A stretch of DNA of 64,000 nucleotides from Aggregatilineales bacterium (GTDB lineage Bacteria > Chloroflexota > Anaerolineae > Aggregatilineales > Ch27). Below the pieces are notes generated by a model that made no database searches, was not told where the DNA came from, and saw only the letters and a program-made list of their open reading frames with translations. The DNA lies in the NCBI GenBank assembly GCA_029976025.1, contig JARKNX010000036.1, positions 70,353 to 134,352 of the forward strand, read 5' to 3'. Positions 3,275 to 54,861 of this stretch are shown here, piece by piece. The first letter of the stretch is position 1. Each line of letters begins with the position of its first letter. A program made the translations under genes and the position numbers.

Positions 3275-3337
3275 TGACCTTACCCCAGTTTGGCGGACAG
3301 CAGAAATGTCCGATAGACTGAGGGTAAGGAGAGAACG

Positions 3338-4473: not shown

Positions 4474-4509
4474 CATTCTTTCTGTCCGTCAAATCGGGGT
4501 AGGGTCATT

Positions 4510-4743
4510 AGCCAGAACGCAAAGGGAAGTAGTCCGACGATGAAAAAAGTCTCTCAAAAGACAGTGATGTCTATTCCTTTCCCTAAATTGATTCCACTAT
4601 CTGAACAACGTGAGATCATCGCCTTCCTTGATGCCCTCAAGTTTCGTATCAATGAACTAGAGCAGCTTCAGGCCGCCACGACCGCCGAACTTGACGCGCT
4701 GCTGCCCTCCATCCTGGACAGGGCGTTCAAAGGGGAGTTGTAG
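4510..4743 (+). pseudogene. hsdS: C-terminal stub of a type I R-M specificity subunit (HsdS), truncated by the IS
   Basis: The frame is open from the IS right end: SQNAKGSSPTMKKVSQKTVMSIPFPKLIPLSEQREIIAFLDALKFRINELEQLQAATTAELDALLPSILDRAFKGEL. The pattern (P.L.EQ..I..L...coiled coil...L..S.L..AF.GEL) is the conserved HsdS C-terminus. Confidence 0.65.
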
Positions 4744-4777
4744 TTGCTTCTATAGTCCCGCTCAGAAAGACCATACC

Positions 4778-18250: not shown

Positions 18251-18296
18251 AGATTCATAATAGCCTTGCTCCAATTTGATAGGCGGTAAAAATATC
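18251..18296 (+). repeat. Left copy of an imperfect ~46-bp direct repeat bracketing the defence operon
   Basis: agattcataatagccttgctccaatttgataggcggtaaaaatatc aligns with 34144..34189 in the same orientation (about 37/46 identical by hand). The core TTTGATAGGCGGTAAAAATATC against TTTGATAGACGGTAAAAATGTC matches at 20/22. Confidence 0.6.
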
Positions 18297-18445
18297 AGAG
18301 GGCGGCAAGCCACCCCAATTATGTCAGGCTGAAAGCCCAGAGCTGAATACAGCCCCTGCCAGCATAGATATGCGTCTCCTCGATATCCTTGAAAAGACTG
18401 AACCTGGGGATGAAACATCCGTGAGCTGCCTATGAGCGAGTGCAT

Positions 18446-19597
18446 TCAGAGCAGGCTTCTGTATGCGTTAGTAACGGCGCTCGCCGCTATCTCAATCTGT
18501 TCAATAGTAGTAAAGCGTCCTACACTCGCTCTCACCGTGCGGAACGCGTCTTCGCGCCCCAGACCCATCGCTTCCAGCACATGAGAGGGGGAGATTGCTC
18601 GAGACGTACAGGCAGCCCCCGTTCCTAACATTACCTCAGGGCAATTCAACAACAGGGCATCAGCGTCTACCTCAGGAAAAGTGATGCTACTGGTATTGGG
18701 AAGGCGCTGGTTCAGGCTGCCATTAATTCGAACGTCGGGCAACTCATGCAGTAATCTGCTCTCAAATAGATCGCGCAGAGACGCCAGTCTTGCTGACTCT
18801 TCGATGAGCTGTGCTGAACTGATGTCACAGGCTTCTCCCAAACCAGCTATAGCAGGGACGTTCAGCGTCCCGGGGCGAAGCCCTCTCTCCTGCCCTCCTC
18901 CAACGAAGACAGGCTCAAGCCGAACCAGGTCAGGATCGCCCCGCACATATAAAGCTCCTATCCCTTTCGGGCCATAGAGCTTATGTCCACTCAGCGAGGC
19001 AAAGTCCACTCCCCACTCAGTGACATTCACCGCAATCTTTCCAACGGTTTGTGCTGCGTCACAATGTACAAGTGCCCCGAATTGATGTGCGATCTCCGCG
19101 ATCTCAGCAACTGGCTGGATAGTGCCTACTTCGTTATTCGCCCCCTGGACAGACACCAGAAAGGTTCTATCGTCGATTGCTTTTTCTGCACTATCGAGTC
19201 GAACGCGCCCGTTATTGTCAACTGGCAGGATGATGACCTCAAAACCTTCCTCCTGCAGCTTCTCACACGGAGCCAATACCGACTTGTGTTCAACTGCCGA
19301 CGTGACGATCCGATTTCTAGCGGGGTTCGGCCGCCTGCCTGCAATGCCCAGGATGGCCAGATTATTACTCTCAGTAGCCCCGGCAGTGAAGACGATCTCC
19401 GCTGGACGTGCTCCGATGAGGGCGGCTACCTTCTCTCGCGCTACTTCCACGTGTTCAGCAGCCAGACGCCCCTGAAGGTGAAGACCGTTTGCCGGATTAC
19501 CGTAGATTTCACGGAAAAACGGCAACATGGCTTCCAGCACCCGGGAATCGCAAGGTGTCGTAGCATTGTAATCCAGATAGACCGCCGCTTGCTTCAT
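18446..19597 (-). CDS. sspA: Cysteine desulfurase (NifS/IscS class V aminotransferase), SspA/DndA-like, last gene of the defence operon
   Basis: 383 aa. YLDYNATTP start, PLP-lysine motif SGHKLYGPKGIGALYVR and catalytic-cysteine loop GAACTSRAISPSHVLEAMG. Its start lies 6 nt after the stop of the BrxL-like gene. Confidence 0.9.
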   Translation of the reverse strand: MKQAAVYLDYNATTPCDSRVLEAMLPFFREIYGNPANGLHLQGRLAAEHVEVAREKVAALIGARPAEIVFTAGATESNNLAILGIAGRRPNPARNRIVTSAVEHKSVLAPCEKLQEEGFEVIILPVDNNGRVRLDSAEKAIDDRTFLVSVQGANNEVGTIQPVAEIAEIAHQFGALVHCDAAQTVGKIAVNVTEWGVDFASLSGHKLYGPKGIGALYVRGDPDLVRLEPVFVGGGQERGLRPGTLNVPAIAGLGEACDISSAQLIEESARLASLRDLFESRLLHELPDVRINGSLNQRLPNTSSITFPEVDADALLLNCPEVMLGTGAACTSRAISPSHVLEAMGLGREDAFRTVRASVGRFTTIEQIEIAASAVTNAYRSLL

Positions 19598-19603
19598 GCC
19601 ATC

Positions 19604-21052
19604 TCAGTCCAGAGTTAGTCGGTAGCTGATCGCACTTTCATATTGTCGATATTCAGAATCGAGACTCTGCAATTGCTCCCAGACAAGCTGCCTGAGATCC
19701 CTGGCGGGTTGCACACAATAGTGTTCAAACTCCTCAGGGGACAGTTCGCCATGAGGAAACTGTAATTTCATCATGCCTGTGGAAATAGCAAGAAGCGCAT
19801 CCTCGTTTCGTTTGTATCTCCGACCGCCAGCGAGATGAACCATTCGAGAGCAATGCTCATCGAGCGATAGATCATCACGGAGGGCCAACAGCGCATCTCC
19901 CAAGAAATCAGACTTTAATCCTGTGCCCACAGCAAAGCATTCGTTACTCAGCTTCCTGATGCGCCAGCCAGGAATAATGCCCCGAATACGATCAAGAAAA
20001 GCTGGTTCCTGAAGAAATTCTGGCAGTTCTCCTACCAGAGGGCTGGCGATTGGCTTTTGATGGGCATCGAGCAAGATATTTGCCAACAACACCAGGCCGC
20101 AGTCACTGGCAGTTTCATGGAGACCGCCTCGAGTGAGGCGGCCATTAGCCAAGTATCCCTTTAGCCCGCCGACGATTTCCTGAGGCTTTTCGAACTTCAG
20201 AGTTTGGACCTCATCCAGTACAACAACCTTATAACGCGCCAGCAGACCCCATTGCCCGCTCGCGTTGTTCACAAAGAGAACTGCTGGAGAGACATTTCCC
20301 CCACTGAGTAAGCGTACACGCGGGCTGATATTCTCATATATATAACTCTTGCCAGTGCCCTTTGGGGCCAGTTCAATCAGATGCATGTTCTTCTGTACTA
20401 CTGGAAGCAACCGACACAGCAACAATGTTTGTTCTTCTTCAGAGAAGCTGTGTGGGTTATATCCCATAGAGTTGAGCAGCAATGATCGCCACTCGCTCAG
20501 TGAGAACTGACATCTTGCTTCCTTATACAGATTCAGATCGACCACTGCCTGCATCGGCTTGAACCCCGCAACGGCTGGGCCTCCGGACGTGTTGACTAAA
20601 TCAACGACTCCCCACAGACCCTGGTTCAGCAGATCTGGATACTGGTTGACCAAACTGTCAGAGATCTGAGCATCGGAGATTTGCAGCAGGCTCAACGCAG
20701 CCAGTCGTTCTTGGCGCTGCCGATTCAACACAACATTGACCTGCACTGACGTCAGAACTCTAACCGTCTCCCCGTTGAGCAAGCGATTCTTGATGAGATT
20801 GGCGTCTTCAGGACGTGGCAGGAAACGATCAGCCCACCGAAGGACGCTCGAAGCATCATCCTGTGAAAGCGGGCCTATGCCTGGCGCGATAGTGTCGAGT
20901 AGCCATTCGGCTACGTAGGCCGGCACACCTCGCTTATCCAGCTGGCTCATCCGCAGGCGGCGTTTATCAATCGCTAAAGCCCCAAAGACCTGCCTGATCT
21001 TGTCTTCCATATCCTGGGCTAACTGAACTGAGGATGTATCGCTCACAGACAT
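19604..21052 (-). CDS. brxL: BrxL-family ATPase (putative Lon-type-protease ATPase family), short form without an evident Lon protease domain
   Basis: 482 aa. Walker A is IELAPKGTGKSYIY and Walker B is KVVVLDEVQTLKF. The N-terminal region VPAYVAEWLLD..ANLIKNRL resembles BrxL. It is adjacent to a PglZ gene. The ~130 aa after the ATPase core are too short for a Lon proteolytic domain and carry no Ser-Lys dyad motif. Confidence 0.75.
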   Translation of the reverse strand: MSVSDTSSVQLAQDMEDKIRQVFGALAIDKRRLRMSQLDKRGVPAYVAEWLLDTIAPGIGPLSQDDASSVLRWADRFLPRPEDANLIKNRLLNGETVRVLTSVQVNVVLNRQRQERLAALSLLQISDAQISDSLVNQYPDLLNQGLWGVVDLVNTSGGPAVAGFKPMQAVVDLNLYKEARCQFSLSEWRSLLLNSMGYNPHSFSEEEQTLLLCRLLPVVQKNMHLIELAPKGTGKSYIYENISPRVRLLSGGNVSPAVLFVNNASGQWGLLARYKVVVLDEVQTLKFEKPQEIVGGLKGYLANGRLTRGGLHETASDCGLVLLANILLDAHQKPIASPLVGELPEFLQEPAFLDRIRGIIPGWRIRKLSNECFAVGTGLKSDFLGDALLALRDDLSLDEHCSRMVHLAGGRRYKRNEDALLAISTGMMKLQFPHGELSPEEFEHYCVQPARDLRQLVWEQLQSLDSEYRQYESAISYRLTLD

Positions 21053-21058
21053 ACTTTC

Positions 21059-23263
21059 TCACAATTCGAGTCCATCAAGAAGCGAAGTGTCACGCGAGTA
21101 CAACTCTTCGCTTTCAAGCTCCATACTCACGCGAATTTCCACACGCTCTCCACTAGGCCAACGCAGATATGCAGTTGCCTTAGAATGCTTGATTTCTTCT
21201 TTCGATGGCCAGAATCGCAATTCAAGGGTTTTGTTTTGTTTGGTGAGAGCGAGAATCTCCCACCCACATTGGAGCGTCTCCGATGATCGCTTTACACCGA
21301 ATTCTATTTCTACAGAATTCAGCACAATCGGGATTTCATCTGAATTGATGATCTCCACGTGCAACGTCCCCGCCTGACCTGCCCTATTTTTACCAGTGAT
21401 TCGTACTTCCACCATGGGGATACGTTGTTCTTTTGGCATAGCATCACGTACCAGGACAATCCAGGGAACTATCACTTCTTCCGGGAACAGTCCGCCATGT
21501 GTATACCATTCTTGCCCTTGTTTTCCGTCATTCATTCGAAATGCTGCCTCATCCAAAATTACTGCAGCATCTTCTGTAAGGCCATAGCTTTCGCCGTGGA
21601 GATACACCACATTGTCTTCAATAGTGTATCCGGCTGCCGGAAACTCCCGTTTGACTTCGCTAGCAGGTCCTGACGCAGCACGGCCGTGCGTTTCCATCCC
21701 CGCGGGAATTGGAATAGATCGCTGCGATGAAGCGAGCAAGCGCCCGTGATCAGTTGTGAGCACCAGCTTTAGGGGAATAGTGACTGGTAACTGTTCCACG
21801 AGTTCAGCGATCTTCTGGGCCACTGTATTCAACTGGCCTTCAACTTCGTGCTTGAGGGAATCATAGTTGTTACGCGCATGATACGTATGATCAGGCTCCT
21901 GAATACGCCAGATAAATAGATCATCAATATGTGCTGTCTGTAGCAACTCATTCGGAGACTTACGTTCCGAGATGTCCACAGCAAGCGGAGGTAGACCCGC
22001 AGCATGAAGCTCCGGCACACCTTTCAACAGTGCTTCCTTCGCAAATCGGGTAATCGTCGGGATTGGCGCAAAGACGAGGCGATCTTCCTGAATCTCCAGA
22101 CGCCTGGTAGCCACCTGCAAAGCCCGAAGAAACTGTCGAGCGTCCGGAAGATGCAATCCGTCCAAAACGATTAACAGTGTCACGAATTCCGTGTCCTGCC
22201 CCCTCAAGAACCCCGTCTCTCGAAAACTAAGGTGTTCTTTGTCTTTCGAATTCAGCGCTCGCCGGTAGAAGTCCAGATACCATGTGGCAAAACACCTGGC
22301 AAGGTCAACGATACGGTGTCGAACCTGAATATTACGGTCATCGCCCTGCTGCCACTCGCGAAGTGGCAGATACTCATTCCTGAACCAGGCCAGGACCTCC
22401 GCGGGCGCTTCCGGCACATCTGAAGGTTCTGGTGGTCGCAACAATCCGCGCAGTTGTTCCCATTGTGACCCTGAGACACCGGGAGCCAGCGTTGCAAGGT
22501 ATCCTTCGGTCAACTGCTGAGGGTTAACCGTAAAATAGTCAAAGGCTACTCCAACCGCGATCTGCTTAAGCTCTGGAGATAGAGGAAGTGCCATTAATTG
22601 CTCAAAGAAATCCCCGTGTGTGTCCACCATAGAGTGCCGCCAAGCGCTTAAGGCTCTGTCACTCCAAGGGGCTGGCACTTTCACCGGAAACTCCTCTAGC
22701 CCATCGATTCGTTGATCTGCCTTGATACCGAGCCAGATGTCAAGCATACTCTGTGCCGACTCAGAATCTGTAGCTTCGTATAAGGGCTTGAGACTCCTCG
22801 ATGCATCTCGCTGCCATCCCTCTGATACCGCCCGGAGAAGCGGTTGCTCCACCTGGTCAGGGGTTTGTAGGTCAAGCCAGAGTAGCCACTCAGCGGCGTG
22901 CTCCAGCGAAGGAGTGCCTGCCCATCGAAAATCCGGATGCAAGGCTTGCAGTATCCCTGGTGCAGAGATAGGACGGCGCAGACTGAAGTATTTACTCTCC
23001 AGGCGGGAGTAAAGGGCGTCAGCCTGATCCTCACTGAGATCAGGAATAGCTGTTAGTATCTCTCTTCGAGGTGAAGGCGCATCCTGAAACCGAAGATGGC
23101 GGCCCCGAAGGAACGTCCTGGCCCACTCACACAGGCGCTGACCACGGATGAACCACCTTCCCTCGCCGTCAACAATCCTGAGAAAACCTACTTCATCCTC
23201 AATCAGTACGTATCCGCCGGGAATCAGAGCATCTCCGTGATAATCGAGCAGGAAGTTCTCCAT
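21059..23263 (-). CDS. pglZ: PglZ domain-containing protein (alkaline-phosphatase-fold)
   Basis: 734 aa. The central region has VTLLIVLDGLHLPDARQF and LKLVLTTDHGRLLAS, the D...T/DHG metal-ligand pattern of PglZ domains. It is flanked by BrxC-like and BrxL-like genes, as in BREX loci. Confidence 0.75.
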   Translation of the reverse strand: MENFLLDYHGDALIPGGYVLIEDEVGFLRIVDGEGRWFIRGQRLCEWARTFLRGRHLRFQDAPSPRREILTAIPDLSEDQADALYSRLESKYFSLRRPISAPGILQALHPDFRWAGTPSLEHAAEWLLWLDLQTPDQVEQPLLRAVSEGWQRDASRSLKPLYEATDSESAQSMLDIWLGIKADQRIDGLEEFPVKVPAPWSDRALSAWRHSMVDTHGDFFEQLMALPLSPELKQIAVGVAFDYFTVNPQQLTEGYLATLAPGVSGSQWEQLRGLLRPPEPSDVPEAPAEVLAWFRNEYLPLREWQQGDDRNIQVRHRIVDLARCFATWYLDFYRRALNSKDKEHLSFRETGFLRGQDTEFVTLLIVLDGLHLPDARQFLRALQVATRRLEIQEDRLVFAPIPTITRFAKEALLKGVPELHAAGLPPLAVDISERKSPNELLQTAHIDDLFIWRIQEPDHTYHARNNYDSLKHEVEGQLNTVAQKIAELVEQLPVTIPLKLVLTTDHGRLLASSQRSIPIPAGMETHGRAASGPASEVKREFPAAGYTIEDNVVYLHGESYGLTEDAAVILDEAAFRMNDGKQGQEWYTHGGLFPEEVIVPWIVLVRDAMPKEQRIPMVEVRITGKNRAGQAGTLHVEIINSDEIPIVLNSVEIEFGVKRSSETLQCGWEILALTKQNKTLELRFWPSKEEIKHSKATAYLRWPSGERVEIRVSMELESEELYSRDTSLLDGLEL

Positions 23264-23266
23264 CGC

Positions 23267-26200
23267 CTAGCTTGCAGCCTCTTTATCCCGCATTTCTTCG
23301 GACATGAGCCGCTGGAGCAAATCCAGACAATCCTGTCGCCTGTCTGTTGATCCCAGGGCCCGGAATAATTCCTCGATCCGGGCGATCTGATCTTGGTCCA
23401 GACATTCCTGCACTCTCGTATGCAGCGCTTTCAGTCGGTCTCGATAGTCCAAAGGTAAGAAGGCTGGCGGACGTTCTAGCTTTCGCTTCAGTTCGCCCGG
23501 CGATGCTTTCCTCCCAAATTCAGATTCACGCTCCTCAAGCCACTGAATAGCGTCTTGCTGCCTGCTTTTCAGTTGATTTGCCTTCTGCTCACGAACCCGA
23601 TCCAACTCCTTCAGATGGTGCCGGCTCAACATCTGCCCATAATGGCTGGACATCTGAGCCAGCACCTTCTCCGCGGCCTCGACATCCGCTGGTGTGTCGG
23701 GGATATGCTTTGCTCCTTCTAGTTCTCTTACGAACTTGCGAAGAGCATCCAAATACTCCAGCGCTTCCTCTAGTTGGTTTTGGAACTCTGTGTCCTGGTA
23801 TCGACTTTGCTGACGCAGGATGGTATCTCGCTCCTCCGATATAGCGGCCAGATCCAGGTTATACGCGCGATCGTTAATGCTCTCCGCATACGCCTCTAAA
23901 ACCCGAATCTCGTCCTGAACCTCACGGAGTTTAGTTTCCTGCAACGATTTAATATCGGGAGATATCACCTCGATCTCCTGCAGGCGGGTCTCATAGCGGC
24001 GAAGCTCTGCCAGGCCGGCTCTGGTATTCATCACATCGATTTCATTGCGGATGAACGCCTCGCTCTCCTTGGCCTTCAGAATATCTGCCCGCTTATTCAG
24101 CTTACCCTGGATCTCGGCGACCTCCGCCGCGAGTGAAGTCAAGCCCTGTTGCTCCAATTGCTTCTTCAGGCCCGCCAGATCCCGGCGGAAGCTACCTGCC
24201 TGATCGCTGTCGGTCAGTCCGTCTACCCTCAAGAAAAGTCTGCGGAGGGCCTGTTCAAGCGCCGTGTTCAGGTGTATCTCGATCTCGTTGGGGGCCGACT
24301 GAGTGACATGCACCTGGTTTCCGACGGGTAGATTCCGCAGCTTGTCACGCAGCTTGAGCAGGTTGGCGATGTCCCGCTCGCTGTCAAGTTGTCGCAAGAC
24401 ATTGCCGGCCTCACGGTCATATTCTTGTGCTTCTCTGAGAGCCTTCTCCAATCTGTCAACAGCTCTTGATGCCCGTTGGACAATATCTGGAGATTGGTTG
24501 TCAAGGGCGGCGAACTCTTCTAGATTCTGTAGAGCCGCCTGGGCTTCTTCCTGAGTGAACAACTCATCCTTGTTGATTTTGCGGATGATCTCCTGTGCTT
24601 CGCGTTGGGCGGCGTCAGGATCGCGCCGTGTGATTGTCAAAGGCGTGCGGCAAGCCCAGTCGAGAAAACCCCGGGATGTTTTAGTCGTCTCGATCTGCCG
24701 CTCCAATTGGTTAAGTGTTATATACTGTCCCCAGGCGCTGAGCCGCAACTCGTTCCGGAAATAGCCAATCCAGCCACATAGCAGCAAGGTTGCCGTGTTG
24801 TAGTCAAAGCCATAGGGAGGATTGAGCAAGGTCGGAACAATCACCGCGACCCTGCCGTCCTTCACACCAGGTTCGAAAGTGCGGTTGAGCAGCTTCCAGG
24901 CTTCCGAGAGTTTCATCGATGTTGGCTGTTGCAGAGCGTAGTCTCGCACCGACAACAGACCCCACTTCCGGGGAGGGGAGAGATACTTCTCGCACAAATC
25001 TCTGGATACAGAATCCATGCCATTAAAGGCCCCCTCTACACGGTCGTAGATGAGATTCTTGGCTACCGTTTTGACTGCGGTACGCAGCCTATTTTGTCCC
25101 CTGACCTGGACAGCGGAATACTGTGTGAAGAACTCAGGCGGTCGTATCGGGTACGCATACTCATACAACGCCTTAAGCACATGTTTAATAGGCCGCTCTG
25201 ACAGAGTAGCGACCACCGTTCGATATGCCTTTGGCACAACGAATTCGGAAGAGTCGCGACGTATCTCCCATACATTTTCATAGTCACCACGAAGTCGCTT
25301 TAATGCCTTGTGGAGCGCTATCCGAGTTCGCTGAACCTCGAGCTCATACGTCTGTTGCCCAACTTCCTTTATTAGATCTTTGTCCCTGCCAACTGCCTCA
25401 AGCGCCTGATAACGCCGATACAGCTCCTTCATCTCCGGTACGGTATCCCTCGGAATCATTACGATAACTGGCAGCGGCGGATCCTGAAGCCCCACCGCAG
25501 CTTCCAGAATATCCTGAGCCTGTTCGCGCAAATCTTCGCGAGCAGCATCATCGAGAGTCACCAGCCACAACACTGCGCCGCGGATTCCATCTGATAGCCC
25601 GCTATCAGGGGATAAGCTGAATAGTGGTAGCACAGAAATGGGTGCGTCGGGGATGATTATGTGCTCCTCAGCCGCCCAATCTGATGCATGTCCCCACTCA
25701 ATTTCCAGCGGAATACTGCCAAATTTGGGATCCTCTCGGAGCCATCTGTTGAGTCCGTTGATATAGGCGCCCGGATCAAATTCTGTCGCCTCAAGCTGTT
25801 CCTGAACCGCTTTTTCAAGCCGCCGGGGATCAGCTCCAACCGGGAGAAAACCGTTGATACGTTGAATAGAGTCATAACGCGTGACTCCATTCCGACTCAG
25901 GTCCTTCAATACCTCCCGGATCGTCTTCTCATCTGAACCGCACATGGATGCCAGCAGCTCAGTCTGCTTCTCCCCTGCGGCTGAAAGACGGGCGATCTCC
26001 TGAAGGAGGAGGGCCTTCAACACGGCCCGCTGTATTTCAGTAACATTTTCGCCAAAAATCTGTTCGAGGTCGCGCTGGGCTTTGTCGTATGCAGTGTATA
26101 GGTTTCCGGCGTCTCCCGCCAGACGACGCTCGAAATAGTCAACCAGTGCGACAGGTAGAACCCAGTTGACACGGCCATCCCTTTGCGCCGGTTCATTAGC

Positions 26201-27538
26201 GCGAGCATCAAGCTGGTCGCGCACAAACCCGAGTGCTGTACGCGCTGTGCCAATATCCTCCCCCTGCTGCACTTTGATCTGGCACAACAGCGCTGTGGTC
26301 ATAGGATGAAGTGGGAAACATCCTTCGGTTACGACCTGTCGGAACTTCTGATAGCTCCAATCCAGTTCCGCATCGTAGTATTTCTGGAAGGCGCCCCACG
26401 TATGCTCTGTAGCTTGAAATATTGCCCCCTTGATACTGAAATCCCGGAGGAATTCTTCCCACGCCTCTTGATCTTGCTTGAGATAAGAATCGAGCACGCC
26501 TTCCATCAGAGAATAGAGCGCCCACCGCCTCGGTATGCGCTGGAGCTCCTTCCTCAAGTTCTGGAGGCTCTGCCCACCATGTAACGTCTGGTCCGCGACT
26601 AGCTCAGGATCGTGCTGAGCAAAAGCCAGGAAGGCAGCCTTTGTTCTGTGATCTTCCACCCCTTGTAATAAGTCCTGCAGCTCGCCGACTGCCCTGCTAC
26701 GCGCATATCGCTGCACGTACATGCTGAACTCATCAAACAGGATAAGAAGGCCAGCCAGCGGCTTCTTCTCCCCGCAGAATTCCCCCACCACCCAGCGGAC
26801 GGCCTCGCGCAAGCTGGCATTCCCTTCAGCGCTGGGCCGGACACCATGACTCAGGTGTTCGAATAACTCTACGTACAACTCATAGGCGCGGTATTGCTCA
26901 ACTTCATCGAGCAATGCGGGAACATCCATAGCATGGGACTGCAGAAACGCATCCGCTTTGATGACCATCTCTGGTGTCAGGTTACGCAAATAATTCAACG
27001 CGGTATCGACCCAGAAAGGCAGCTCTACATCACGAGTTGGGGCGTGCTCCGAAAGCGCCTTTTTAAGCGCGAGGAAGAACTGCTCACGAAGCGACCGTGG
27101 GCTATCCCCACGCAGCCGCACCACAAGGTATTCCCCATGTTCTTTCTTGAATTCCCGGTAGCCTTCTGCTTTTGCTGGATCTGATACAGCCTGACCAATT
27201 CGGTCCAGAACTATCTTCACTTCAGGCGAGTCATACGGCCTGGAGAAATAGTTTGCCAGCACTACCGCCAGGTGACTCTTGCCATAGCCGTAGTTGGCAA
27301 TAGCAAGCATGCGGTTTTCGAACCGGTCGAACTTGAGCGCCTTGAGCAGTTCGTCGAGCAGGCCCAGAGCAGCAATAGCCTGTGTCTGAGCACCCCGACT
27401 GCCCGGTGTTGTCACAGAGAAAATATACGCCTGCAACAGAGCCAGATTAGAATCCCGATCGTCGAAATTGCTGATCTGAACATCGCTGCGAAACTGTCCC
27501 TTGGTATCGAGCTGAACAATTTCCCCCAGAGTAAACAT
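23267..27538 (-). CDS. brxC: BrxC/PglY-like giant P-loop ATPase with a long C-terminal coiled-coil
   Basis: 1423 aa. The N-terminus is FRSDVQISNFDD...LLQAYIFS. Walker A is ANYGYGKSHLAVVLANYF and Walker B is LLILFDEFSMYV. There is an FPLHPMT motif. The last ~420 aa are E/R/L/Q-rich heptad-like sequence. RBS is GAGGTGGGGGA. Confidence 0.7.
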   Translation of the reverse strand: MFTLGEIVQLDTKGQFRSDVQISNFDDRDSNLALLQAYIFSVTTPGSRGAQTQAIAALGLLDELLKALKFDRFENRMLAIANYGYGKSHLAVVLANYFSRPYDSPEVKIVLDRIGQAVSDPAKAEGYREFKKEHGEYLVVRLRGDSPRSLREQFFLALKKALSEHAPTRDVELPFWVDTALNYLRNLTPEMVIKADAFLQSHAMDVPALLDEVEQYRAYELYVELFEHLSHGVRPSAEGNASLREAVRWVVGEFCGEKKPLAGLLILFDEFSMYVQRYARSRAVGELQDLLQGVEDHRTKAAFLAFAQHDPELVADQTLHGGQSLQNLRKELQRIPRRWALYSLMEGVLDSYLKQDQEAWEEFLRDFSIKGAIFQATEHTWGAFQKYYDAELDWSYQKFRQVVTEGCFPLHPMTTALLCQIKVQQGEDIGTARTALGFVRDQLDARANEPAQRDGRVNWVLPVALVDYFERRLAGDAGNLYTAYDKAQRDLEQIFGENVTEIQRAVLKALLLQEIARLSAAGEKQTELLASMCGSDEKTIREVLKDLSRNGVTRYDSIQRINGFLPVGADPRRLEKAVQEQLEATEFDPGAYINGLNRWLREDPKFGSIPLEIEWGHASDWAAEEHIIIPDAPISVLPLFSLSPDSGLSDGIRGAVLWLVTLDDAAREDLREQAQDILEAAVGLQDPPLPVIVMIPRDTVPEMKELYRRYQALEAVGRDKDLIKEVGQQTYELEVQRTRIALHKALKRLRGDYENVWEIRRDSSEFVVPKAYRTVVATLSERPIKHVLKALYEYAYPIRPPEFFTQYSAVQVRGQNRLRTAVKTVAKNLIYDRVEGAFNGMDSVSRDLCEKYLSPPRKWGLLSVRDYALQQPTSMKLSEAWKLLNRTFEPGVKDGRVAVIVPTLLNPPYGFDYNTATLLLCGWIGYFRNELRLSAWGQYITLNQLERQIETTKTSRGFLDWACRTPLTITRRDPDAAQREAQEIIRKINKDELFTQEEAQAALQNLEEFAALDNQSPDIVQRASRAVDRLEKALREAQEYDREAGNVLRQLDSERDIANLLKLRDKLRNLPVGNQVHVTQSAPNEIEIHLNTALEQALRRLFLRVDGLTDSDQAGSFRRDLAGLKKQLEQQGLTSLAAEVAEIQGKLNKRADILKAKESEAFIRNEIDVMNTRAGLAELRRYETRLQEIEVISPDIKSLQETKLREVQDEIRVLEAYAESINDRAYNLDLAAISEERDTILRQQSRYQDTEFQNQLEEALEYLDALRKFVRELEGAKHIPDTPADVEAAEKVLAQMSSHYGQMLSRHHLKELDRVREQKANQLKSRQQDAIQWLEERESEFGRKASPGELKRKLERPPAFLPLDYRDRLKALHTRVQECLDQDQIARIEELFRALGSTDRRQDCLDLLQRLMSEEMRDKEAAS

Positions 27539-27552
27539 GATCCCCCACCTCG

Positions 27553-28035
27553 CTAATCGGAATAAGACCCAACCAGGCGGCTATCATGTTCCAGTGCCGC
27601 CCACAGCCTGTCATCAGGCAGTAGCTCTGTCGCGGTCTCTGGAACAGCCACTACCAGAGCACGGGAACGATACGGCATCCCGTCAAAAAGGCCCCGCCAT
27701 ACCTCCTGGCGCTCATCACGCTTCAGCCCTGCCAGCAACAGGTCTACGTTGAAGATAAGGGCGCAATCCGTCTTGCCGCTGCTACTGGCTATAGCGTCTA
27801 ACGCCTCCAACACCTTTTCAGATGTCAGCCGGACAAACCGCGTCCCGGCAGGGAGTCGTTCCAGGATGACATCCCGCACATCGATCGCCTCGATCCCCAG
27901 TCGCGCCGCAACATCCAACTCGCGGCCAACATGTCCAGGGGGCATCCGCCAGACCCCGACACGGGTCCGCAGCGTCGGTCGACGCAGCAGTACGATAAGC
28001 TCCCTGACGGGCTTGAGAGGATCAGGCTGTTCCAT
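27553..28035 (-). CDS. Unknown 160-aa protein (possibly a BREX accessory, BrxB/BrxF-like position)
   Basis: ATG at 28035 overlaps the upstream gene by 14 nt, and the stop lies 12 nt before the brxC-like RBS/start. There is no canonical Walker A (IASSSGKTD lacks the first glycine). The motif CALIFNVDLLLAGLKRDERQEVWRGLF was not recognised. Confidence 0.5.
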   Translation of the reverse strand: MEQPDPLKPVRELIVLLRRPTLRTRVGVWRMPPGHVGRELDVAARLGIEAIDVRDVILERLPAGTRFVRLTSEKVLEALDAIASSSGKTDCALIFNVDLLLAGLKRDERQEVWRGLFDGMPYRSRALVVAVPETATELLPDDRLWAALEHDSRLVGSYSD

Positions 28036-28876
28036 AGAGCTTCTCTAACAAGGGTCCCGTTTCCTGCCGCAGCAGCACGACCTGCTCCGGCGGAGCAACC
28101 CGATAGACATCAACATAGTGTTCACCCTGAAGCACACGCAGTACTTCGTTAAACTCCCGACGCCCCAACAAGAATAACGGAGCAAACCCGCCTGGCTCCT
28201 GCAACGAGTCCAGGGTCACAGTCAGGCGTCCTTCGAACTGCGCTGCCCAATAATCGAGGAGCGCGTACGCGACGGCCCATACAGGCGGGGGCACAGGCTC
28301 CATAACCCGGTAACGCTCGCCATCCGCACTCAGAATACTCAGCTTGCCAAGCGCGTCTGACTTAGTGTACGTTCCCAGGAACACGGTCGCCGTGCTGCGC
28401 ACCGTTCGTTCGGCAAGGCTGCGGCCTTCAGTTTCCTCTATAAATTCACCCAGATGCTGACTGATCTCGCCTGCTGTGAACTCTCGCCCCACGTAAAAAT
28501 AGGTGTTCACCAGATCGTGCCAGAAGGCCGGTCCGGGGCCATGTGGCGCGCTAAGATAATAGTGCATCAGCCACTGTGTGCCGTGCTGTTCCAGGAGGGG
28601 ATCATGGGCCAGACTCATTCGGCCAAAATCAGTGAGCTGGCGATCAAAATCAAGCAGCCCCGCACCCATTGCGTAACGAGGCATGGACTCGGCATATATG
28701 GAGCCGAGAGACGTATTCTGTCTGATCGTCTCCTTATTCAGCTCTCCCTCACTACTGGTGCTGATCTGTTCTGCAAGCTCCAGTACCTGTATCACAGCGG
28801 GCCGAATTAGCGAGAATGTGCGGTGAAAGGAAAATCCGGGTCTACCCTCCTGTTTGGAGTTCTTTCTCTGTTCCAA
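28022..28876 (-). CDS. Divergent DUF4007-like protein (second SspB-like paralog)
   Basis: 284 aa, TTG start behind AGGGGAAGAG. FSFHRTFSLIRP parallels FGGHEKFVFRQGW of the first DUF4007 gene, and HGTQWLMHYYLSAPHGP parallels IGTLWLLHWQLVSGP. Lengths are similar. Confidence 0.55.
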   Translation of the reverse strand: MEQRKNSKQEGRPGFSFHRTFSLIRPAVIQVLELAEQISTSSEGELNKETIRQNTSLGSIYAESMPRYAMGAGLLDFDRQLTDFGRMSLAHDPLLEQHGTQWLMHYYLSAPHGPGPAFWHDLVNTYFYVGREFTAGEISQHLGEFIEETEGRSLAERTVRSTATVFLGTYTKSDALGKLSILSADGERYRVMEPVPPPVWAVAYALLDYWAAQFEGRLTVTLDSLQEPGGFAPLFLLGRREFNEVLRVLQGEHYVDVYRVAPPEQVVLLRQETGPLLEKLYGTA

Positions 28877-28891
28877 TTCTCTTCCCCTAAC

Positions 28892-29731
28892 TTAGAGATG
28901 ACATATCAGGCAACTATCATCGTCGTCCATTGCATCTAGTTCTAGACCCAAAGTCTGAATAAGCGTCTGCTGTGGTTTATGCCTGCTCGACGATCGTAGC
29001 TGGAATTCTTGATGTTCTTTTTTCACTTGCTCGATCCTAAGGGGTTCTTGCAACTCCTGCAGACTTTCTCTTGAAACCCAGGTATATCGCTCACCAGTTT
29101 CGGGATCTTCTCGTTCGTACGCCATAGCCTGCATGTAGAGATCAGGATGATTTTCTAACAGGCCAATCCATTCAATACGTTGCTGAAAGAAGCAGAAATA
29201 GCAGCCAGAGCGAGATCGCCAGTTATAGTATTCTGGTAGACCAAGTCCGCTCTCATCCAGAATCCTTAGCACATCTTCCTTGGCGATTCCGGCTTCAACA
29301 AATGGATAGCGCGGTACTATGTTTGGTTTGCTTGAGATATATCCTTTACGATTAGGTTCGTCAGCTCGTATCCCGATGTAGCTATAACAGAGATCCTCCC
29401 CTATATATTTCTCAAAAGGCTTGATCTTCAGATATTCGGTGCACCATCTAACTTTCGGAGATGGTAGAAATCCCCGGCGCATTTGCAAAAGTTCGTCGAA
29501 CCCTTTTCCTTCATGTTTGAGATAGACAATGGGCTTATTGAGGTAGGCTTCAAGACGATTCAAATATTCGTAGGTCTCCGCGAGCTCCTTCTCTGTATCG
29601 CAGAAGACGTATTCCAGATCAGTAATCTTGTCGCGCAGGTAGATTGCTAAGGCGGTGCTATCCTTGCCGCCAGAGAGGGAAACGATGTGTCGGGCAGGCT
29701 TGCTGCCGGCGGGATGCTGAGATGGGGACAT
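28892..29731 (-). CDS. sspD: PAPS reductase / PP-loop ATP pyrophosphatase family protein (SspD / BrxP-like)
   Basis: 279 aa. PP-loop VSLSGGKDSTALAIYL. Cysteine motifs are RWCTEYLK, SGCYFCFF and the C-terminal CLICHL. Sampled lines are markedly AT-richer than the flanking genes. Confidence 0.9.
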   Translation of the reverse strand: MSPSQHPAGSKPARHIVSLSGGKDSTALAIYLRDKITDLEYVFCDTEKELAETYEYLNRLEAYLNKPIVYLKHEGKGFDELLQMRRGFLPSPKVRWCTEYLKIKPFEKYIGEDLCYSYIGIRADEPNRKGYISSKPNIVPRYPFVEAGIAKEDVLRILDESGLGLPEYYNWRSRSGCYFCFFQQRIEWIGLLENHPDLYMQAMAYEREDPETGERYTWVSRESLQELQEPLRIEQVKKEHQEFQLRSSSRHKPQQTLIQTLGLELDAMDDDDSCLICHL

Positions 29732-29768
29732 TGAGTTAGCTTCCTATAAATCTGGCTATATGGACACT

Positions 29769-32700
29769 TTACTTTCTGCGGAGTAACGCACGTAAGGCAG
29801 CACGAACTACCCGCTGATTCTTATTGTAGTATGGTTGAAGGATATCCGCCACCTGCGAGCTCAAGAGATCGGTAAGAGCCTGTTCTTCGGATGTCAACAG
29901 GGCGTCACCGTCGGCACTCAGGTGTTCAGACTGGAACAGCCTCCCAAGCGTTTGAGCATATGCGGGGAACCGATCCACGTCGGTATCGGCCCACGTGCGC
30001 AATGGTCGGGAAGCCGCGAAAGCCAGCACGCTATCGACGGAGCCTTGCAGGTCAGGGGCGCCCACAGCCCGCTGCAACATCGGCAGGAGTCTCGGGTGGG
30101 TGACATAGTCGGCCATGACCTCGGCTGCGGCTATAAGCTGCCGCCATCCCGCCTCCTCGCCCGGCAGGCCACAAGCGGCCAGCAGCTCATCCCTCGCCCA
30201 GGCGCGCAATCGGGGCGTTGCCTCGCTCAGGGTTTGCAAGGCATCGTTGAGACGGTCAAAGAACAGAGTCGTCTGTTCGGGTTCTGCCTCCTGATCCCCG
30301 AAGGGCGGCAAGTTCAGCGCCGCTGGCAAATCGTTGAATAACAGTTGCTCCGGTGAATGCGCACGCTCCATCGCCGTACGTACGCGCAGGGCGTGGTCAG
30401 GCAGGCGCTGTGTCCGCCAGGCATATTCTGGTAGCGCTTTCACCTGCCGCAAAAGCTCACGCACAACTGGCATTACAGCAACCTCAACGCCCAGATTGTG
30501 CGCGAAACGCTCCAGGACGGTGCGACGAGGTCCGACCAGGCGACAACCAGCCAGCCCGAAAAGATCCGGGCGCCGCAACAACACCTCCCAGTCAGCGATG
30601 CCTGGCTCCGGCAGCAGCGATCCCTCACGGTAGAACGTCATCTCAGCCTGGTGTACCAGATAGAACGCACAGAGCAAGACGGGCAGGACACCGTCGCTTA
30701 TGCCGTAAGGCGGCGCCTTCAGCCGCCTGAATAGCTCTTCCGTCGAACGTATCTCAACAGGGGCGGCGAAGATATAGTCAGCAATTGCATCCCATACCGG
30801 GCCTAAGCCCAATGAGTCTGCTGCAGCGGGCGCGAGGAAACGCCATTCGCCAGAGGCATCCTGTCGGTGGAGACCTCCCGCATGGAGCAGGCTCTCATAC
30901 ATACTCCGTTCCGGGGGGTAACCTTCAATGCCCAGGGTCGGCTCGGACGATCGGCTGAGCATGGCCTCGATCAAATTACGGCGAGCAGCAGCAGCCTGCG
31001 AGGAAAGGGCGCGGCGGTTGAGCAGTTCGTTCCACACCCGGGGGGTCGCCTTATAGATGACATCGCATACTGTGGATAGATAGGAAGTCAGATTCCGCCC
31101 CACCTGGCCTGTGACGTCCACACCACAATGATACCAGCGGCAGGCAGCCGATCGGGTCAACTGGTGCGGGCCGAAAGCCTCATCCAGGTGTCGCCGGATC
31201 AGTGTCTCCACCGCGTCAATGCGCGCCCGCCACTCCTGGCGTGCAACAGTATCATCGCGCAGCTCTGGCGTCTGCTCATAGACCCACTGAAGGGCATCCA
31301 GCTCATGTAACAACTCGGTGAGTCGCGGGATCGGGTGTGCGATGCCGATCACGATATCTGAGCGGGCCTGTAGCGAGGCCTCCCTCGCCCATTCGGCGAG
31401 CTGGTATTCATCCGCTGTAGTGAGAGGCAGGCAAAGGACGACGACACCGCTCGCCTGTTCCGGCTGAGTGAGCAGTTCATGCCGGTCTGTACGGACGTCA
31501 GCGTAACGCACATCGAAGAAGCGGGTCGTGCCACTCTGGTAACTGTGCCGCCGGGCTACAAGTGGACGCGGCGGCAGATATCTGTGCAGCACCTCTACTG
31601 AGCTGGTAATTCCGCCAAGGTGTTGGTGAGCTTGCTGAAGGCGCTCTTCAATATCAACATCGCTGCCCTGCCAGATAACGTAGGTATGGTTGAACCGCCG
31701 GTAAACCAGCATCGAACGCTTGCAGAGCGCTTCGAGCGCCTGGCGGATCTCTTTCTTGCGATAGCTCGATCCGCCTAAAGCTACCAGAAGCGCTTCCTCC
31801 GTTGCCTGAAGATGGCTGGTCTCTCCCAGCCAGTTGAGAAGGCCAACGCTCTTAAATATGGCGGCTTCCAGAGGCGTGAGGAGCGTGGTGCTGTTAAGGC
31901 GATCGAGCGTTTCGGCGAGGATCCGCCCGCGTCCAGAAGCGTAGAGCCGTCCCTGGAAGTTGGCTGCCACGTAGTCGAACAAATCAGCGAGGCCGACGAA
32001 ATCAGGTGTCTGATGCTGCTGAATAAACTCCTGAAAGCCCTTCGGTTCATAGGAGGTGAGATAGGCAAAGACCGAGCGCTCATTCTGAGCCAGACGCCGG
32101 AAGATCAACGGCAGCGCGACCAGGGTGGTCGGGTGCAGCGGGTAGGTGCGTTCGGCTAAATCGATAAACTCGCCATCGTGCATTCCAGGCGGGCGCCACC
32201 CGCTTGTTGCGGTCAGTTGAGCGTAATTGCGGAGCAGGGGTGTCACATCCTGCGGCATCTCGCCCTTATGAGTGATTGCGCGCGCCAGCAAATGAAGCTG
32301 TTGAACAGGTGGTTCCTGGAAAGGGATATCCTCAAATCGGCCCTGAACTTTGGCCCACTCCTGCTGTGTCAGGCTGTCAAGGAACACTGCATAACGTTCA
32401 AACGCCTGATGCAGTACTCCGATTATGACAAGCGGGTGTTCCGTGCTACGGTTGGCGAATTCAGCAAGCTCCTGAAGGAAATAGACGTCTGCCTCATCAG
32501 GATGTGCGGCCGCGAACTCGAGGGGTTTGCCCAGTTCATCGACGACCAGCAGGATGCCGCGATATTCTTCTTCGGCAATAACTTCCAGCAGGCGGGCTAA
32601 TCTATGTAAAAATGCCCTGCTTGTCTCTGGAGCAGCTTTCGCCATTACCTCGGCCAGTTTCTTAGCAGGCACCCCCTCGGCCTCCAGACGGCGCACCGCG

Positions 32701-33128
32701 TGGTGCAGCCCATCGGCCAGACACTGCTGTAGTGATGCGCGATAACCCGTTATTGGGATGGGGAAGAAGCCCCGGCTTCCATCCAGTTGGGTTTCTACGA
32801 CTTCGAGCGCAAGCAAAGGATCAGCCTGCTGCAGTGTATGTATCGTTGTAGCGTGATCTGCTTGGCCCCGCCCCAGTAGATTCAGCAAAAACAAGCTGAA
32901 GTACGATTTGCCGGATCCGTATGGACCGGTCAGCGTCCAGGCGCGGGTCTTGCGCCTGTTGTCTAGCCCCGACAGGATACGCCCCAGGCTGAGAAGAGCC
33001 TGGGAGGTGAGCATATAACCTTGAATAAGCCCGGCAGACTGCAGATCGCTATCAAGTCGGATAGCCCGTATAGCGGTTTGCCGGATCTCCACCAGCGAAT
33101 CCAGGGAAGTAGAAGAGGTTTCATTCAT
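29769..33128 (-). CDS. sspC: SspC-like giant P-loop ATPase (BrxC/DUF499-type paralog)
   Basis: About 1119 aa from the ATG at 33128. That ATG forms an ATGAATGA overlap with the upstream DUF4007 stop, whereas the ORF track starts at 33155. Walker A is LTGPYGSGKSYFSLFLLNLL and Walker B is ILLVVDELGKPLEF. There is a YPLHPTT motif. The gene sits between DUF4007 and PAPS reductase, as in sspB-sspC-sspD. Confidence 0.75.
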   Translation of the reverse strand: MNETSSTSLDSLVEIRQTAIRAIRLDSDLQSAGLIQGYMLTSQALLSLGRILSGLDNRRKTRAWTLTGPYGSGKSYFSLFLLNLLGRGQADHATTIHTLQQADPLLALEVVETQLDGSRGFFPIPITGYRASLQQCLADGLHHAVRRLEAEGVPAKKLAEVMAKAAPETSRAFLHRLARLLEVIAEEEYRGILLVVDELGKPLEFAAAHPDEADVYFLQELAEFANRSTEHPLVIIGVLHQAFERYAVFLDSLTQQEWAKVQGRFEDIPFQEPPVQQLHLLARAITHKGEMPQDVTPLLRNYAQLTATSGWRPPGMHDGEFIDLAERTYPLHPTTLVALPLIFRRLAQNERSVFAYLTSYEPKGFQEFIQQHQTPDFVGLADLFDYVAANFQGRLYASGRGRILAETLDRLNSTTLLTPLEAAIFKSVGLLNWLGETSHLQATEEALLVALGGSSYRKKEIRQALEALCKRSMLVYRRFNHTYVIWQGSDVDIEERLQQAHQHLGGITSSVEVLHRYLPPRPLVARRHSYQSGTTRFFDVRYADVRTDRHELLTQPEQASGVVVLCLPLTTADEYQLAEWAREASLQARSDIVIGIAHPIPRLTELLHELDALQWVYEQTPELRDDTVARQEWRARIDAVETLIRRHLDEAFGPHQLTRSAACRWYHCGVDVTGQVGRNLTSYLSTVCDVIYKATPRVWNELLNRRALSSQAAAARRNLIEAMLSRSSEPTLGIEGYPPERSMYESLLHAGGLHRQDASGEWRFLAPAAADSLGLGPVWDAIADYIFAAPVEIRSTEELFRRLKAPPYGISDGVLPVLLCAFYLVHQAEMTFYREGSLLPEPGIADWEVLLRRPDLFGLAGCRLVGPRRTVLERFAHNLGVEVAVMPVVRELLRQVKALPEYAWRTQRLPDHALRVRTAMERAHSPEQLLFNDLPAALNLPPFGDQEAEPEQTTLFFDRLNDALQTLSEATPRLRAWARDELLAACGLPGEEAGWRQLIAAAEVMADYVTHPRLLPMLQRAVGAPDLQGSVDSVLAFAASRPLRTWADTDVDRFPAYAQTLGRLFQSEHLSADGDALLTSEEQALTDLLSSQVADILQPYYNKNQRVVRAALRALLRRK

Positions 33129-34053
33129 AGTAGGATCGCAACAAAGCCAGCGCATGCTGTGGCGCGTCGGAGAGATGGAAGCTATGCAAATAGAGTTGTC
33201 GGAGTCCTGCTGTCTCCTGCAAGCGGATGCTTCCTGACGTCAGCTCCTCTAGATCTTCCAGATAGGCCACCACGCTATTTTCATCGAGCTTAAAAGCCTG
33301 TCCCGGGCTTCCGGGATGGTAAATGCACTCATCAACCGCGACGGTGCGCCTATGCCGGGCAATATCCGACAGAAAGTATATCAGAGCGTAGCCGAAAATA
33401 TGCACCGGCAAAAGAGGTTTGGGGCCAATTGTGAACGTGAAAAGGCGATCTTCTCTCGTCGGTCGTATCAGCCCCAGATCAACTAATGGACAGTCCAAAC
33501 TATCGTCGAAGAGTCCGGTACCTCTGGTTTTGACAGTAACATAGGTCCGAAGGCACACATCCACCTCTCGATCAACCATCTGGGGGGTTGTCCGAACGCC
33601 TTCCAGCGCCAGTTGCCGACTGACGAACTCGGTTAACCGTTGCCTGGAGAATTCGCGGTCGAGAAACATGTTGAAGACCAGCCACCATACAAAACTATAT
33701 GGGCCCGAAACAAGTTGCCAGTGGAGCAACCACAAGGTTCCAATATCCTCCAGATACGGGTCGCCCTGCTCATTACCAAACAAAAGATTCCCCAAATGAG
33801 TAGGCTGCAACGCAGTTCTAGGTCCGGCGGGCGCGATTTCAAGGATGCCAGTAGCCAGACACCAATGGCGTATAGACCTAACCATGTTCTTGCCAACACC
33901 CAGACTTACCAGAGCATCATCACGAGTGAATATAGCTGGATCCTGTGCAACGAGATCCACTCCTTTTTTCAGCCAGCCCTGGCGGAACACGAATTTCTCA
34001 TGTCCTCCGAAAACCGAACGTTTGTGGTCCGCGGCTACAGGGAATATCGTCAC
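33121..34053 (-). CDS. sspB: DUF4007 family protein (SspB-like), first gene of the defence operon
   Basis: 310 aa, GTG start with AGGAG 8 nt upstream. The N-terminal FGGHEKFVFRQGWLKKGVDLV matches the F.GHE.F..R.GWLKK signature of DUF4007/SspB. Confidence 0.75.
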   Translation of the reverse strand: MTIFPVAADHKRSVFGGHEKFVFRQGWLKKGVDLVAQDPAIFTRDDALVSLGVGKNMVRSIRHWCLATGILEIAPAGPRTALQPTHLGNLLFGNEQGDPYLEDIGTLWLLHWQLVSGPYSFVWWLVFNMFLDREFSRQRLTEFVSRQLALEGVRTTPQMVDREVDVCLRTYVTVKTRGTGLFDDSLDCPLVDLGLIRPTREDRLFTFTIGPKPLLPVHIFGYALIYFLSDIARHRRTVAVDECIYHPGSPGQAFKLDENSVVAYLEDLEELTSGSIRLQETAGLRQLYLHSFHLSDAPQHALALLRSYYE

Positions 34054-34143
34054 AGATCAGTCTCCTGCTTAAGATAAGGTCAGCATCTCTTAGATTAGCA
34101 TGAGGTACGGCTGAAAACCATCCAGACCCAGTTGTCGTAGGGT

Positions 34144-34189
34144 AAGTTCATAATGGTCTTGCCCCGCTTTGATAGACGGTAAAAATGTC
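34144..34189 (+). repeat. Right copy of the imperfect ~46-bp direct repeat bracketing the defence operon
   Basis: aagttcataatggtcttgccccgctttgatagacggtaaaaatgtc lies 91 nt upstream of the operon's first start codon. See 18251..18296. Confidence 0.6.
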
Positions 34190-34392
34190 TAGACCCGTGA
34201 CGGAACGGTTCTGTGGAGCAAGTTGCCAAAGCTGTCGCTCAGGACATCCAGGAATTTGCGGCGGGAATTGATCAGGCGACCTTTCGCTGATCCAGAGCAC
34301 GGTGATGCGCGAGGCACACGATTCAAAGCTACTTTCAGAACGCTATCAAATAAGGAAAATTAACAACGGATACAGCGGTGGCCCGTTCCTAA

Positions 34393-34596
34393 AGAGACAG
34401 ATTCGTAACCGCTTCGGCATCGAGCGATGCGCCTCTCTTTGAGAACCTGGTAGATATGATCGCCCCGCTGGACGGTCGCGCCGGCATGGTAGCTGCCAGC
34501 AGCGCCAGGGTCTACCGGGACACATTCGCACAGTGGAGCGAACACGGCGCCCGCCTCGTCGCCAAAGCGCGCGCCGCCTTCCTCAGTGGCCAGTAG
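34393..34596 (+). pseudogene. Possible orphan 3' gene fragment at the low-GC/high-GC junction
   Basis: A 67-codon open frame with very GC-rich third positions (..APLFENLVDMIAPLDGRAGMVAASSARVYRDTFAQWSEHGARLVAKARAAFLSGQ*) begins right after a TAA, with no start codon or RBS. The longer minus-strand ORF 34360..34785 is its codon-on-codon shadow. Confidence 0.3.
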
Positions 34597-34832
34597 GATA
34601 CCCTCTGTGCCTGTGCAGCCTGGTTTGCCTGTCAACCTTTGCTCGCCCCCTGACTTTTGACAACTGCTTGCATTCCGCCCGGATAGTTGATATGTTATCT
34701 TCGTCACTCGCACTGCCCATTGAAGCCGCGATCTGAGGAGGCGGCTTTTCGCGAGTGACGAGTTCGTGCGTATCCAGATTGCCACCTGCTGCTACAGGAT
34801 CATACGCCTGTTAATTCAAGGAGACTGGATTG

Positions 34833-35489
34833 ATGTCGCACCTGACTTTTACGGAATCACTCACCTTACTCTCCAGACTCGCTGACGACACTATTGCGGC
34901 CAAAGATGAGCTGACCACCCTGGATGCAGCGCTGGGCGATGGCGACCTCGGGCGCACGGTGGAACGGGGTTTTCGCGCCATCCAGAACATGCTGCAGGAC
35001 GATCCAGGGGCGGAGCCTGACCTGGGCAAGCTGTTCTTCAGGACGGGCAAGGTATTCTCCGAGGCGGCAGCGTCGAGCTTCGGGGCCTTGCTCGGCACCG
35101 CGTTCATGAAGGGCGGCATGGCCCTCAAGGGCAAGTCAGAAGCCTCGGCTGCTGATCTCATCGCAGCTATGCAGGCGGCTTTGACGGCGCTCATGGAGCG
35201 CGGCAAAGCGAATATCGGCGACAAGACGATGCTTGACGCGCTGCATCCTGCTATTGAAGCGATGAGCGCCTATACGGCTGAACAACAGGGTGATCCGGCA
35301 CTGGCACCCTGTTTTCGTGCCGGGGCGGAGGCGGCCCAGGCGGGCGCGGTGCGCACGCAGTCGATGCAGTCGCAGATCGGTCGCGCCAGCTGGCAGGGCG
35401 CGCGCTCGATCGGGCAGATGGATCCCGGCGCGCGCGCTGTCGCCATCATGCTCGATTCGGTCGCACGATATCTGGAGCAGGAGTCTTGA
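34833..35489 (+). CDS. dhaL: Dihydroxyacetone-kinase L subunit-like (Dak2 domain) protein, orphan
   Basis: ELTTLDAALGDGDLGRTVERGF and GDKTMLDALHPA are Dak2 signatures. ATG at 34833 follows AAGGAG. There is no adjacent DhaK partner. Confidence 0.85.
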   Translation: MSHLTFTESLTLLSRLADDTIAAKDELTTLDAALGDGDLGRTVERGFRAIQNMLQDDPGAEPDLGKLFFRTGKVFSEAAASSFGALLGTAFMKGGMALKGKSEASAADLIAAMQAALTALMERGKANIGDKTMLDALHPAIEAMSAYTAEQQGDPALAPCFRAGAEAAQAGAVRTQSMQSQIGRASWQGARSIGQMDPGARAVAIMLDSVARYLEQES

Positions 35490-54738: not shown

Positions 54739-54861
54739 TGGTCGATCCCTCCTTTTGTCAGGGTCACTGACAATACTATTACATAACCAGGTCATATTAT
54801 ACCCGGGGGTATCGTAATGTCCACCGCACCCTCCTCAGGTCCTGCGCCAGTCGAGCGGTCG

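Follow-up and report, generated by a model that had tools for sequence, protein, structure and literature searches.

Direct repeats at the borders of a phosphorothioate/BREX-like operon in a Chloroflexota genome are probably ends of decayed IS3-family insertion sequences

Why is a whole phage-defence operon enclosed by two copies of one short sequence? The question is raised by a window of 64,000 nt (the whole stretch of DNA analysed here) from an Aggregatilineales bacterium of the phylum Chloroflexota (assembly GCA_029976025.1, contig JARKNX010000036.1, positions 70,353 to 134,352). It carries a nine-gene operon on the minus strand (18446..34053) that resembles phosphorothioate and BREX systems, and imperfect direct repeats stand just outside the two ends of this operon. 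A reading of the DNA without database searches (the sequence-only reading) had noticed them and offered three explanations: att-like scars of a site-specific insertion, a recombination hotspot enabling gain or loss of the cassette, or repeated regulatory sites. As described below, both copies are very probably terminal inverted repeats (IRs) of decayed insertion sequences (ISs) of the IS3 family and of one sub-lineage, as judged from their match to IS ends found elsewhere.

The repeat pair itself is real. The similarity in register covers 43 nt, at 18254-18296 for the left copy and 34147-34189 for the right copy, both on the plus strand, and 36 of the 43 bases (84%) are identical. The repeats had been given as 46 nt long, in the same orientation and alike at about 37 positions, which is the right count over the 46-nt span, and a recount also confirmed the 22-nt core alike at 20 of its positions. 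The distances to the operon are likewise correct, with 150 nt between the left copy and the stop of sspA (18446) and 91 nt between the start of sspB (34053) and the right copy. Could two unrelated intergenic sequences resemble each other so well by chance? Nothing speaks for it beyond the modest length of the match. With up to 3 mismatches allowed, the core occurs only at these two sites in the 64 kb, both strands included, while 0 occurrences are expected from 100 shuffles. The local alignment score of the pair is 51, against 10.8 +/- 2.1 for shuffled sequences, and 0 of 2000 shuffles reach that value. The edges of the similarity are sharp, and the outer and inner flanks of the two copies are no more alike than shuffled sequences. 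In short contigs from two sequencing runs the same arrangement is found with both junctions unchanged. Since each copy also matches an IS end profile independently of the other, a chance match is hardly credible.

What kind of sequence is it then? The comparison rests on an element in the same window, which was found while two other repeats (3288-3319 and 54888-54919) were checked and both turned out to be IS ends. This reference element, at 3275-4507 (+), is an intact IS, in which the left inverted repeat (IRL, 3275-3315) is followed by the start of orfA (3338), an A7G run (about 3583-3590), orfB (3619-4473) and the right inverted repeat (IRR, 4467-4507). Its OrfA matches HTH_Tnp_1 (1.8e-12), and its OrfB matches rve (8.7e-27) as well as HTH_21 and rve_3. 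The A7G run is a AAAAAAAG slippery site within the overlap of orfA and orfB. The ends, IRL TGACCTTACCCC... and IRR ...GGGGTAGGGTCA, are imperfect inverted repeats of about 41 nt with TGACC...GGTCA tips, and are 81% identical to each other over 36 nt. The same tips are seen in two family members outside the window (L018 and L019). A target-site duplication, which would be 3-5 bp long in this family, was found neither at the reference IS, which has ATG before its left end and TTA after its right end, nor at L019. The transposase has hundreds of homologues, some of them named IS3 family transposase in Chloroflexi/Anaerolineae. A length of about 1.2-1.4 kb, the orfA/orfB pair, an AnG -1 frameshift and imperfect IRs of roughly 40 bp are hallmarks of the IS3 family (PMC5771124; e.g. 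ISSau2, IS150-subgroup), and by its sequence features the element at 3275-4507 is a member of this family. The second of the checked repeats lies in a miniature derivative of the reference IS (54875-55115, +, about 240 bp), formed by internal deletion, in which IRL and the orfA start are joined to the orfB end and IRR.

Profiles of these IRs were built without the two copies at the operon borders. A four-IR profile was made from the ends of the intact IS and of the miniature derivative, and a seven-IR profile from these four ends in the window and three more ends from L018 and L019. With the four-IR profile, the two copies are the best non-self matches in the 128 kb searched (E=0.0066 for the left and 0.015 for the right), and the next best match has an E value of 0.7. 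With the seven-IR profile, the right copy (34154-34189) reaches E=7.3e-4 and the left copy (18263-18300) E=3.7e-3, followed by a match at 0.93. Both copies are matched on the same strand, each match begins at the IS tip, and in the alignment the layout of both from the tip to the inner IR boundary is that of the reference IS ends. The right ends of L018 and L019 carry the IRR motif TTTTACTGTC, near the TTTTTACCG(C/T)C of the two copies. What is more, the similarity between the copies stops where the left and right ends of the IS cease to resemble each other. Neither the six-IR nor the seven-IR profile points to another IR in the window; a single candidate (34285-34305, -) is at chance level (E=0.93). 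One finding that would have spoken for a generic repeat was many dispersed copies, and this proved partly true: the two copies belong to a dispersed family of IS ends, of which four further and more distant members lie in the window. When the 22-nt core was scanned against 185,579 reference genomes and the JGI metagenomes, only 4 stretches were found in each, which match in the core only and have unrelated flanks, about the number expected by chance for 20 fixed bases.

The left copy tells more, because some of the IS interior appears to remain with it. It consists of TTCATAA (7 nt) followed by an IR that has its tip at 18261 (TAGCC...) and can be matched to about 18301. The IR is of the right-end (IRR) type, with the interior of the IS to its right. 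Contiguous with it, between the IR and the sspA stop, is a frameshifted stub of an IS3-family transposase gene (orfB; 18303..18394, -), which derives from the 3' end of that gene. A DNA profile of the interior only, with the IR excluded, has this stub as its best non-self match (E=8.8e-4), and the match begins where the left IR ends and is in register. For a profile of the IR plus interior the left copy reaches E=1.3e-9. The stub peptide ...YSALGF.QP..IGVACRP can be read as a frameshifted form of the family C-terminus ...HSALGYLSP..YELLACP. The 77-aa open reading frame (ORF) over the left copy has no significant match to OrfB by BLASTP; owing to the frameshift, the homology is visible only at the level of the DNA profile. 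With its IR and roughly 90 nt of the transposase end, the left copy, which lies between a permease gene and sspA, is therefore best described as an IR of the right end that still carries a transposase stub. The nine genes are indeed all inside the bracket, but they are not exactly what it encloses, as it also holds this gene remnant between the left copy and the last gene.

The right copy (34147..34189, +) has the same plan, with TTCATAA followed by an IS3-family IR whose tip at 34154 reads TGGTC... and thus keeps the 5'-TG, and it would be a solo IR. Several observations weigh against the assignment of the two copies to IS ends, among them the lack of a target-site duplication at the reference IS and at L019. 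No orfA or orfB signal is found to the right of the right copy, where a profile of IRL plus orfA matches the IR only. With no transposase remnant there, the assignment of this copy rests on the IR profile and on its 84% identity to the left copy. The left tip is TA instead of the usual TG, a one-base change. Identity between the copies and any of the other IS ends seen is no more than about 60-66%, and no intact IS with exactly this IR is found in the 185,579 reference genomes or the JGI metagenomes, among which the host genome is not included. Finally, the seven bases outside the IS tip (TTCATAA; 18254-18260 and 34147-34153) are identical in both copies, which two independent insertions do not predict, unless the sub-lineage has longer ends or a target preference. 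The ends themselves indicate a previously uncatalogued sub-lineage of a Chloroflexi IS3-family element.

How could the seven bases come to be shared? The sub-lineage may have longer ends or a preference for such a target; both copies may be descended from one end together with the sequence beside it; or what we see may be left over from a second IS end that once abutted the first. As for the last of these, a 3-nt TAA adjoins the tip of the right copy (AGGGTAAGTTCA-TAA-), and the 12 bases that precede this TAA on the left agree with the IRR tip at 9 of 12 positions. No profile match supports AGGGTAAGTTCA as an abutted second end in the style of a circle junction, and it was not adopted. We also considered a single IS split by an inversion. 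This was rejected: orfA would have to lie on the right-hand side of the right copy, where none is found, and TTCATAA would have to come from a palindromic duplication, but it is not a palindrome. A transposase remnant to the right of the right copy was rejected too: the collinear tblastn matches there are arginine-rich and not above those of shuffled sequences, and a profile hidden Markov model compared with 200 shuffles gave no significant result.

If both copies are IS ends, what does their orientation say about the history of the operon? In both copies the IS tip faces left and the former interior lay to its right, so that they are direct and not inverted. A DDE transposase needs inverted ends, and the pair therefore cannot serve as the two ends of one transposon. 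From the IR orientation it appears that each border of the operon was once occupied by an IS copy, and that these two pointed the same way. In one scenario the two ISs were inserted separately, each into an intergenic border that tolerates insertions, within a variable hotspot rich in mobile elements. Another is that an IS-cargo-IS unit in direct orientation was formed by homologous recombination or replicon fusion, which would have permitted RecA-mediated gain of the cassette or its loss by looping out. Under either history, later deletions would have removed nearly all of both ISs. We infer both, and the data do not separate them. The idea of a recombination hotspot for gain and loss is thus plausible for the past, provided that the IS copies were full length. 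For the present it is not, because the copies share no more than 43 nt at 84% identity, in which no identical run exceeds 10 bases, and this makes a poor recombination substrate. Recombination between the copies is now unlikely, and the repeat pair appears inert. The only present-day role that seems possible is an incidental one. On the strand of the operon, 130 nt downstream of sspA, there is a terminator-like GC-rich hairpin (18299..18316, -) and, after it, the T-run of the IR. Located at the end of the old transposase gene, the two together may terminate transcription of the operon. The 7-bp stem is present in the minimum free energy structure; the fold energy is no better than that of shuffled sequences (z=0.12).

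A different origin is suggested by a gene fragment next to the right copy. Between the right repeat and the Dak2 gene, 173 nt outside the repeat and diverging from the operon, there is a pseudogene fragment of a tyrosine recombinase of the phage-integrase family (34363..34593, +), which is roughly 77 aa long, covers about the first 100 residues and has neither a start codon nor a catalytic domain. In Pfam scans of all stop-free fragments in 34190-34835 nothing was detected, and the fragment came to light only in an exhaustive representative search, where a stop-free part of it retrieved proteins of 345-371 aa carrying Phage_integrase and Phage_int_SAM_1. In tblastn the region 34363-34593 gives 56-68% identity at E=6e-9. 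A strain variant from the same sample (L021) differs here by a stop codon and a 4-nt indel at about 34592-34600. A scan of viral contigs for this recombinase family returned distant matches to the catalytic domain only. Are the 43-nt units then attachment (att) sites of this recombinase? It could be imagined that an element bearing the integrase arrived first, that the defence cassette without an integrase then integrated in tandem at the regenerated site, and that the third att site and most of the integrase were later deleted, so that the left copy is attL and the right copy the middle att, at a site that is by coincidence an IS end or has arisen from one. This would account for direct repeats with sharp edges around the cargo, for the N-terminal fragment so close to the right copy, and for the seven bases beyond the IS tip that are common to both copies. 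But both copies score as IS3-family IRs, and the left one is followed by IS interior, which simple integration geometry does not predict. An identical core is missing as well: the longest identical run is 10 nt (CGGTAAAAAT) and 7 of the 43 bases differ. There is no third copy in the window and no tRNA or conserved gene end at the site, and the recombinase is a fragment outside the bracket. We therefore regard att sites of this kind as improbable. A little less probable still is the specific form in which the 43-nt unit, that is the IS end plus seven flanking bases, is the recombination site of the truncated recombinase, and in which a family of elements that use IS3 ends as attachment sites captured an integrase-less phosphorothioate/BREX-like cassette in tandem. 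The sequence-only reading was right that no integrase lies inside, as none of the nine genes is a recombinase. Its att-like scars would be scars of mobile DNA, but of IS3-family ends, which belong to elements with a DDE transposase, and not att sites of a site-specific integrase.

The repeats might also be cis-regulatory sites, such as operators or promoter elements, of the operon or of the neighbouring sugar-utilisation genes. One of the copies precedes the first gene by 91 nt, and IS ends can carry outward promoter elements, as in the junction promoters of the IS3 family. However, no sigma-70-like match is found in or around either copy on both strands, and the left copy is downstream of convergent genes, where there is nothing to regulate. 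The homologous operons of three other genomes lack the sequence, it has no Rfam match, and IS homology explains it fully. A regulatory role is thus very unlikely, and this one of the three early suggestions finds no support.

To place the decayed IS ends in context, consider the operon and its surroundings. The nine genes encode SspB (DUF4007), an SspC/BrxC-like ATPase, SspD (PAPS reductase), a second DUF4007 protein, proteins of 160 and 1423 aa, PglZ, BrxL and an SspA/DndA cysteine desulfurase. The association of sspD with BREX genes and phosphorothioation in BREX type 4 have been described (PMC12914056), and the operon is a phosphorothioate/BREX-type-4-like system of this already described kind. 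Pfam and PADLOC give no match for the 1423-aa protein (23267-27538, -), of which >300 homologues with a length of about 1400 aa were found. The same order of nine genes (DUF4007, SspC-like, PAPS reductase, DUF4007, about 155 aa, about 1425 aa, PglZ, BrxL, cysteine desulfurase) is found in three other Anaerolineae contigs (L015-L017), in different neighbourhoods and with 54-56% identity in the large protein. No IR-like sequence is present at the ends of these operons, and the repeat is therefore not part of the defence system.

On the left, the operon faces a LacI-regulated sugar ABC transporter operon that ends with the permease stop at 18187. On the right there is the Dak2 gene, whose true start is the ATG at 34833, and then further sugar genes. 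Judging by homologues of the flanking permease, the host belongs with Chloroflexi/Anaerolineae metagenome-assembled genomes. In the closest relatives, with 81-85% amino-acid identity in the permease, the DNA after the stop codon cannot be aligned and the gene content is different. What follows the permease differs in each relative examined, being a mechanosensitive channel in one case, an island with TIR-NACHT genes and a diversity-generating retroelement in another, and other genes elsewhere. The position is therefore a variable hotspot of the defence-island type. The TIR-NACHT island at this position in a relative (L003, GCA_029975915.1, 5807-15346) consists of TIR-NACHT-FGE-sulfatase genes, a retroelement with bAvd and reverse transcriptase, and a CARF protein. 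No tRNA genes and no Rfam families were found in the window studied here.

Some further observations concern mobile elements and their neighbours in the window. The intact IS at 3275-4507 appears to interrupt an ORF whose N-terminus is at 3154-3273 (...NEAQTRTRYITPKIVEAGW...); this part has no Pfam match, and we take it to be similar to the N-terminal domain of a restriction enzyme. A 67-aa fragment on the 3' side of the IS (4540-4743), also with no Pfam match, is similar to the final part of a type I specificity subunit. Near the IS there are a DUF3800 gene (4691-5545, +) and a gene for an nSTAND_NTPase5 STAND NTPase with TPR repeats (7609-9918, +), which may be related to defence. The miniature derivative is intergenic, with 53755-54795 (-) on one side and 55089-56375 (+) on the other. 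Another remnant of an IS3-family orfB (10704-11428, -) matches rve and rve_3 and is distant from the intact transposase (26% identity); no matching IR was found for it. Apart from these, two tandem paralogous DUF2961 genes (363 and 358 aa; 50135-52299, +) share about 76% identical DNA over about 1.09 kb.

What does the assignment change? Biologically it changes little. The operon sits in a hotspot littered with debris of mobile elements, namely the two presumed IS ends and the integrase fragment, and the repeats would be scars of decayed elements, which are ordinary at the border of a defence island. They should not be annotated as att sites or as regulatory elements. The borders of the island can be defined, the variable region beginning directly behind the permease stop (18187) and reaching as far as the Dak2 gene (34833), and the cassette is probably now fixed rather than mobile.

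Finally, how does this arrangement compare with known systems? Like islands made by integrases, it has direct repeats at both borders of the defence genes and an integrase fragment nearby. In islands bounded by att sites, however, the repeats would not be IS ends as they appear to be here, and in the present case there is no identical core, the site is not at a tRNA or the 3' end of a gene, and the integrase fragment is outside. Neither copy has an inverted partner, so these are not miniature inverted-repeat transposable elements and cannot be mobilised in trans. Compared with an intact IS of the IS3 family, the copies lack both a partner IR and a transposase, and one of them has a tip mutated to TA; yet they match the reference IRs from the tip to the inner boundary, and the left one keeps the orfB end. 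A lone IR on the right and an IR with a short stub of interior on the left are typical products of IS decay, as known from solo IRs and IS remnants. In contrast to IS-flanked cassettes, there are no full-length IS copies and no inverted outer ends, and mobility as a unit is only inferred for the past. As in composite transposons, translocatable units and cointegrates, two IS ends of the same sub-lineage would surround a cargo operon here, and their direct order is what would be left by homologous recombination or by replicon fusion through IS copies.

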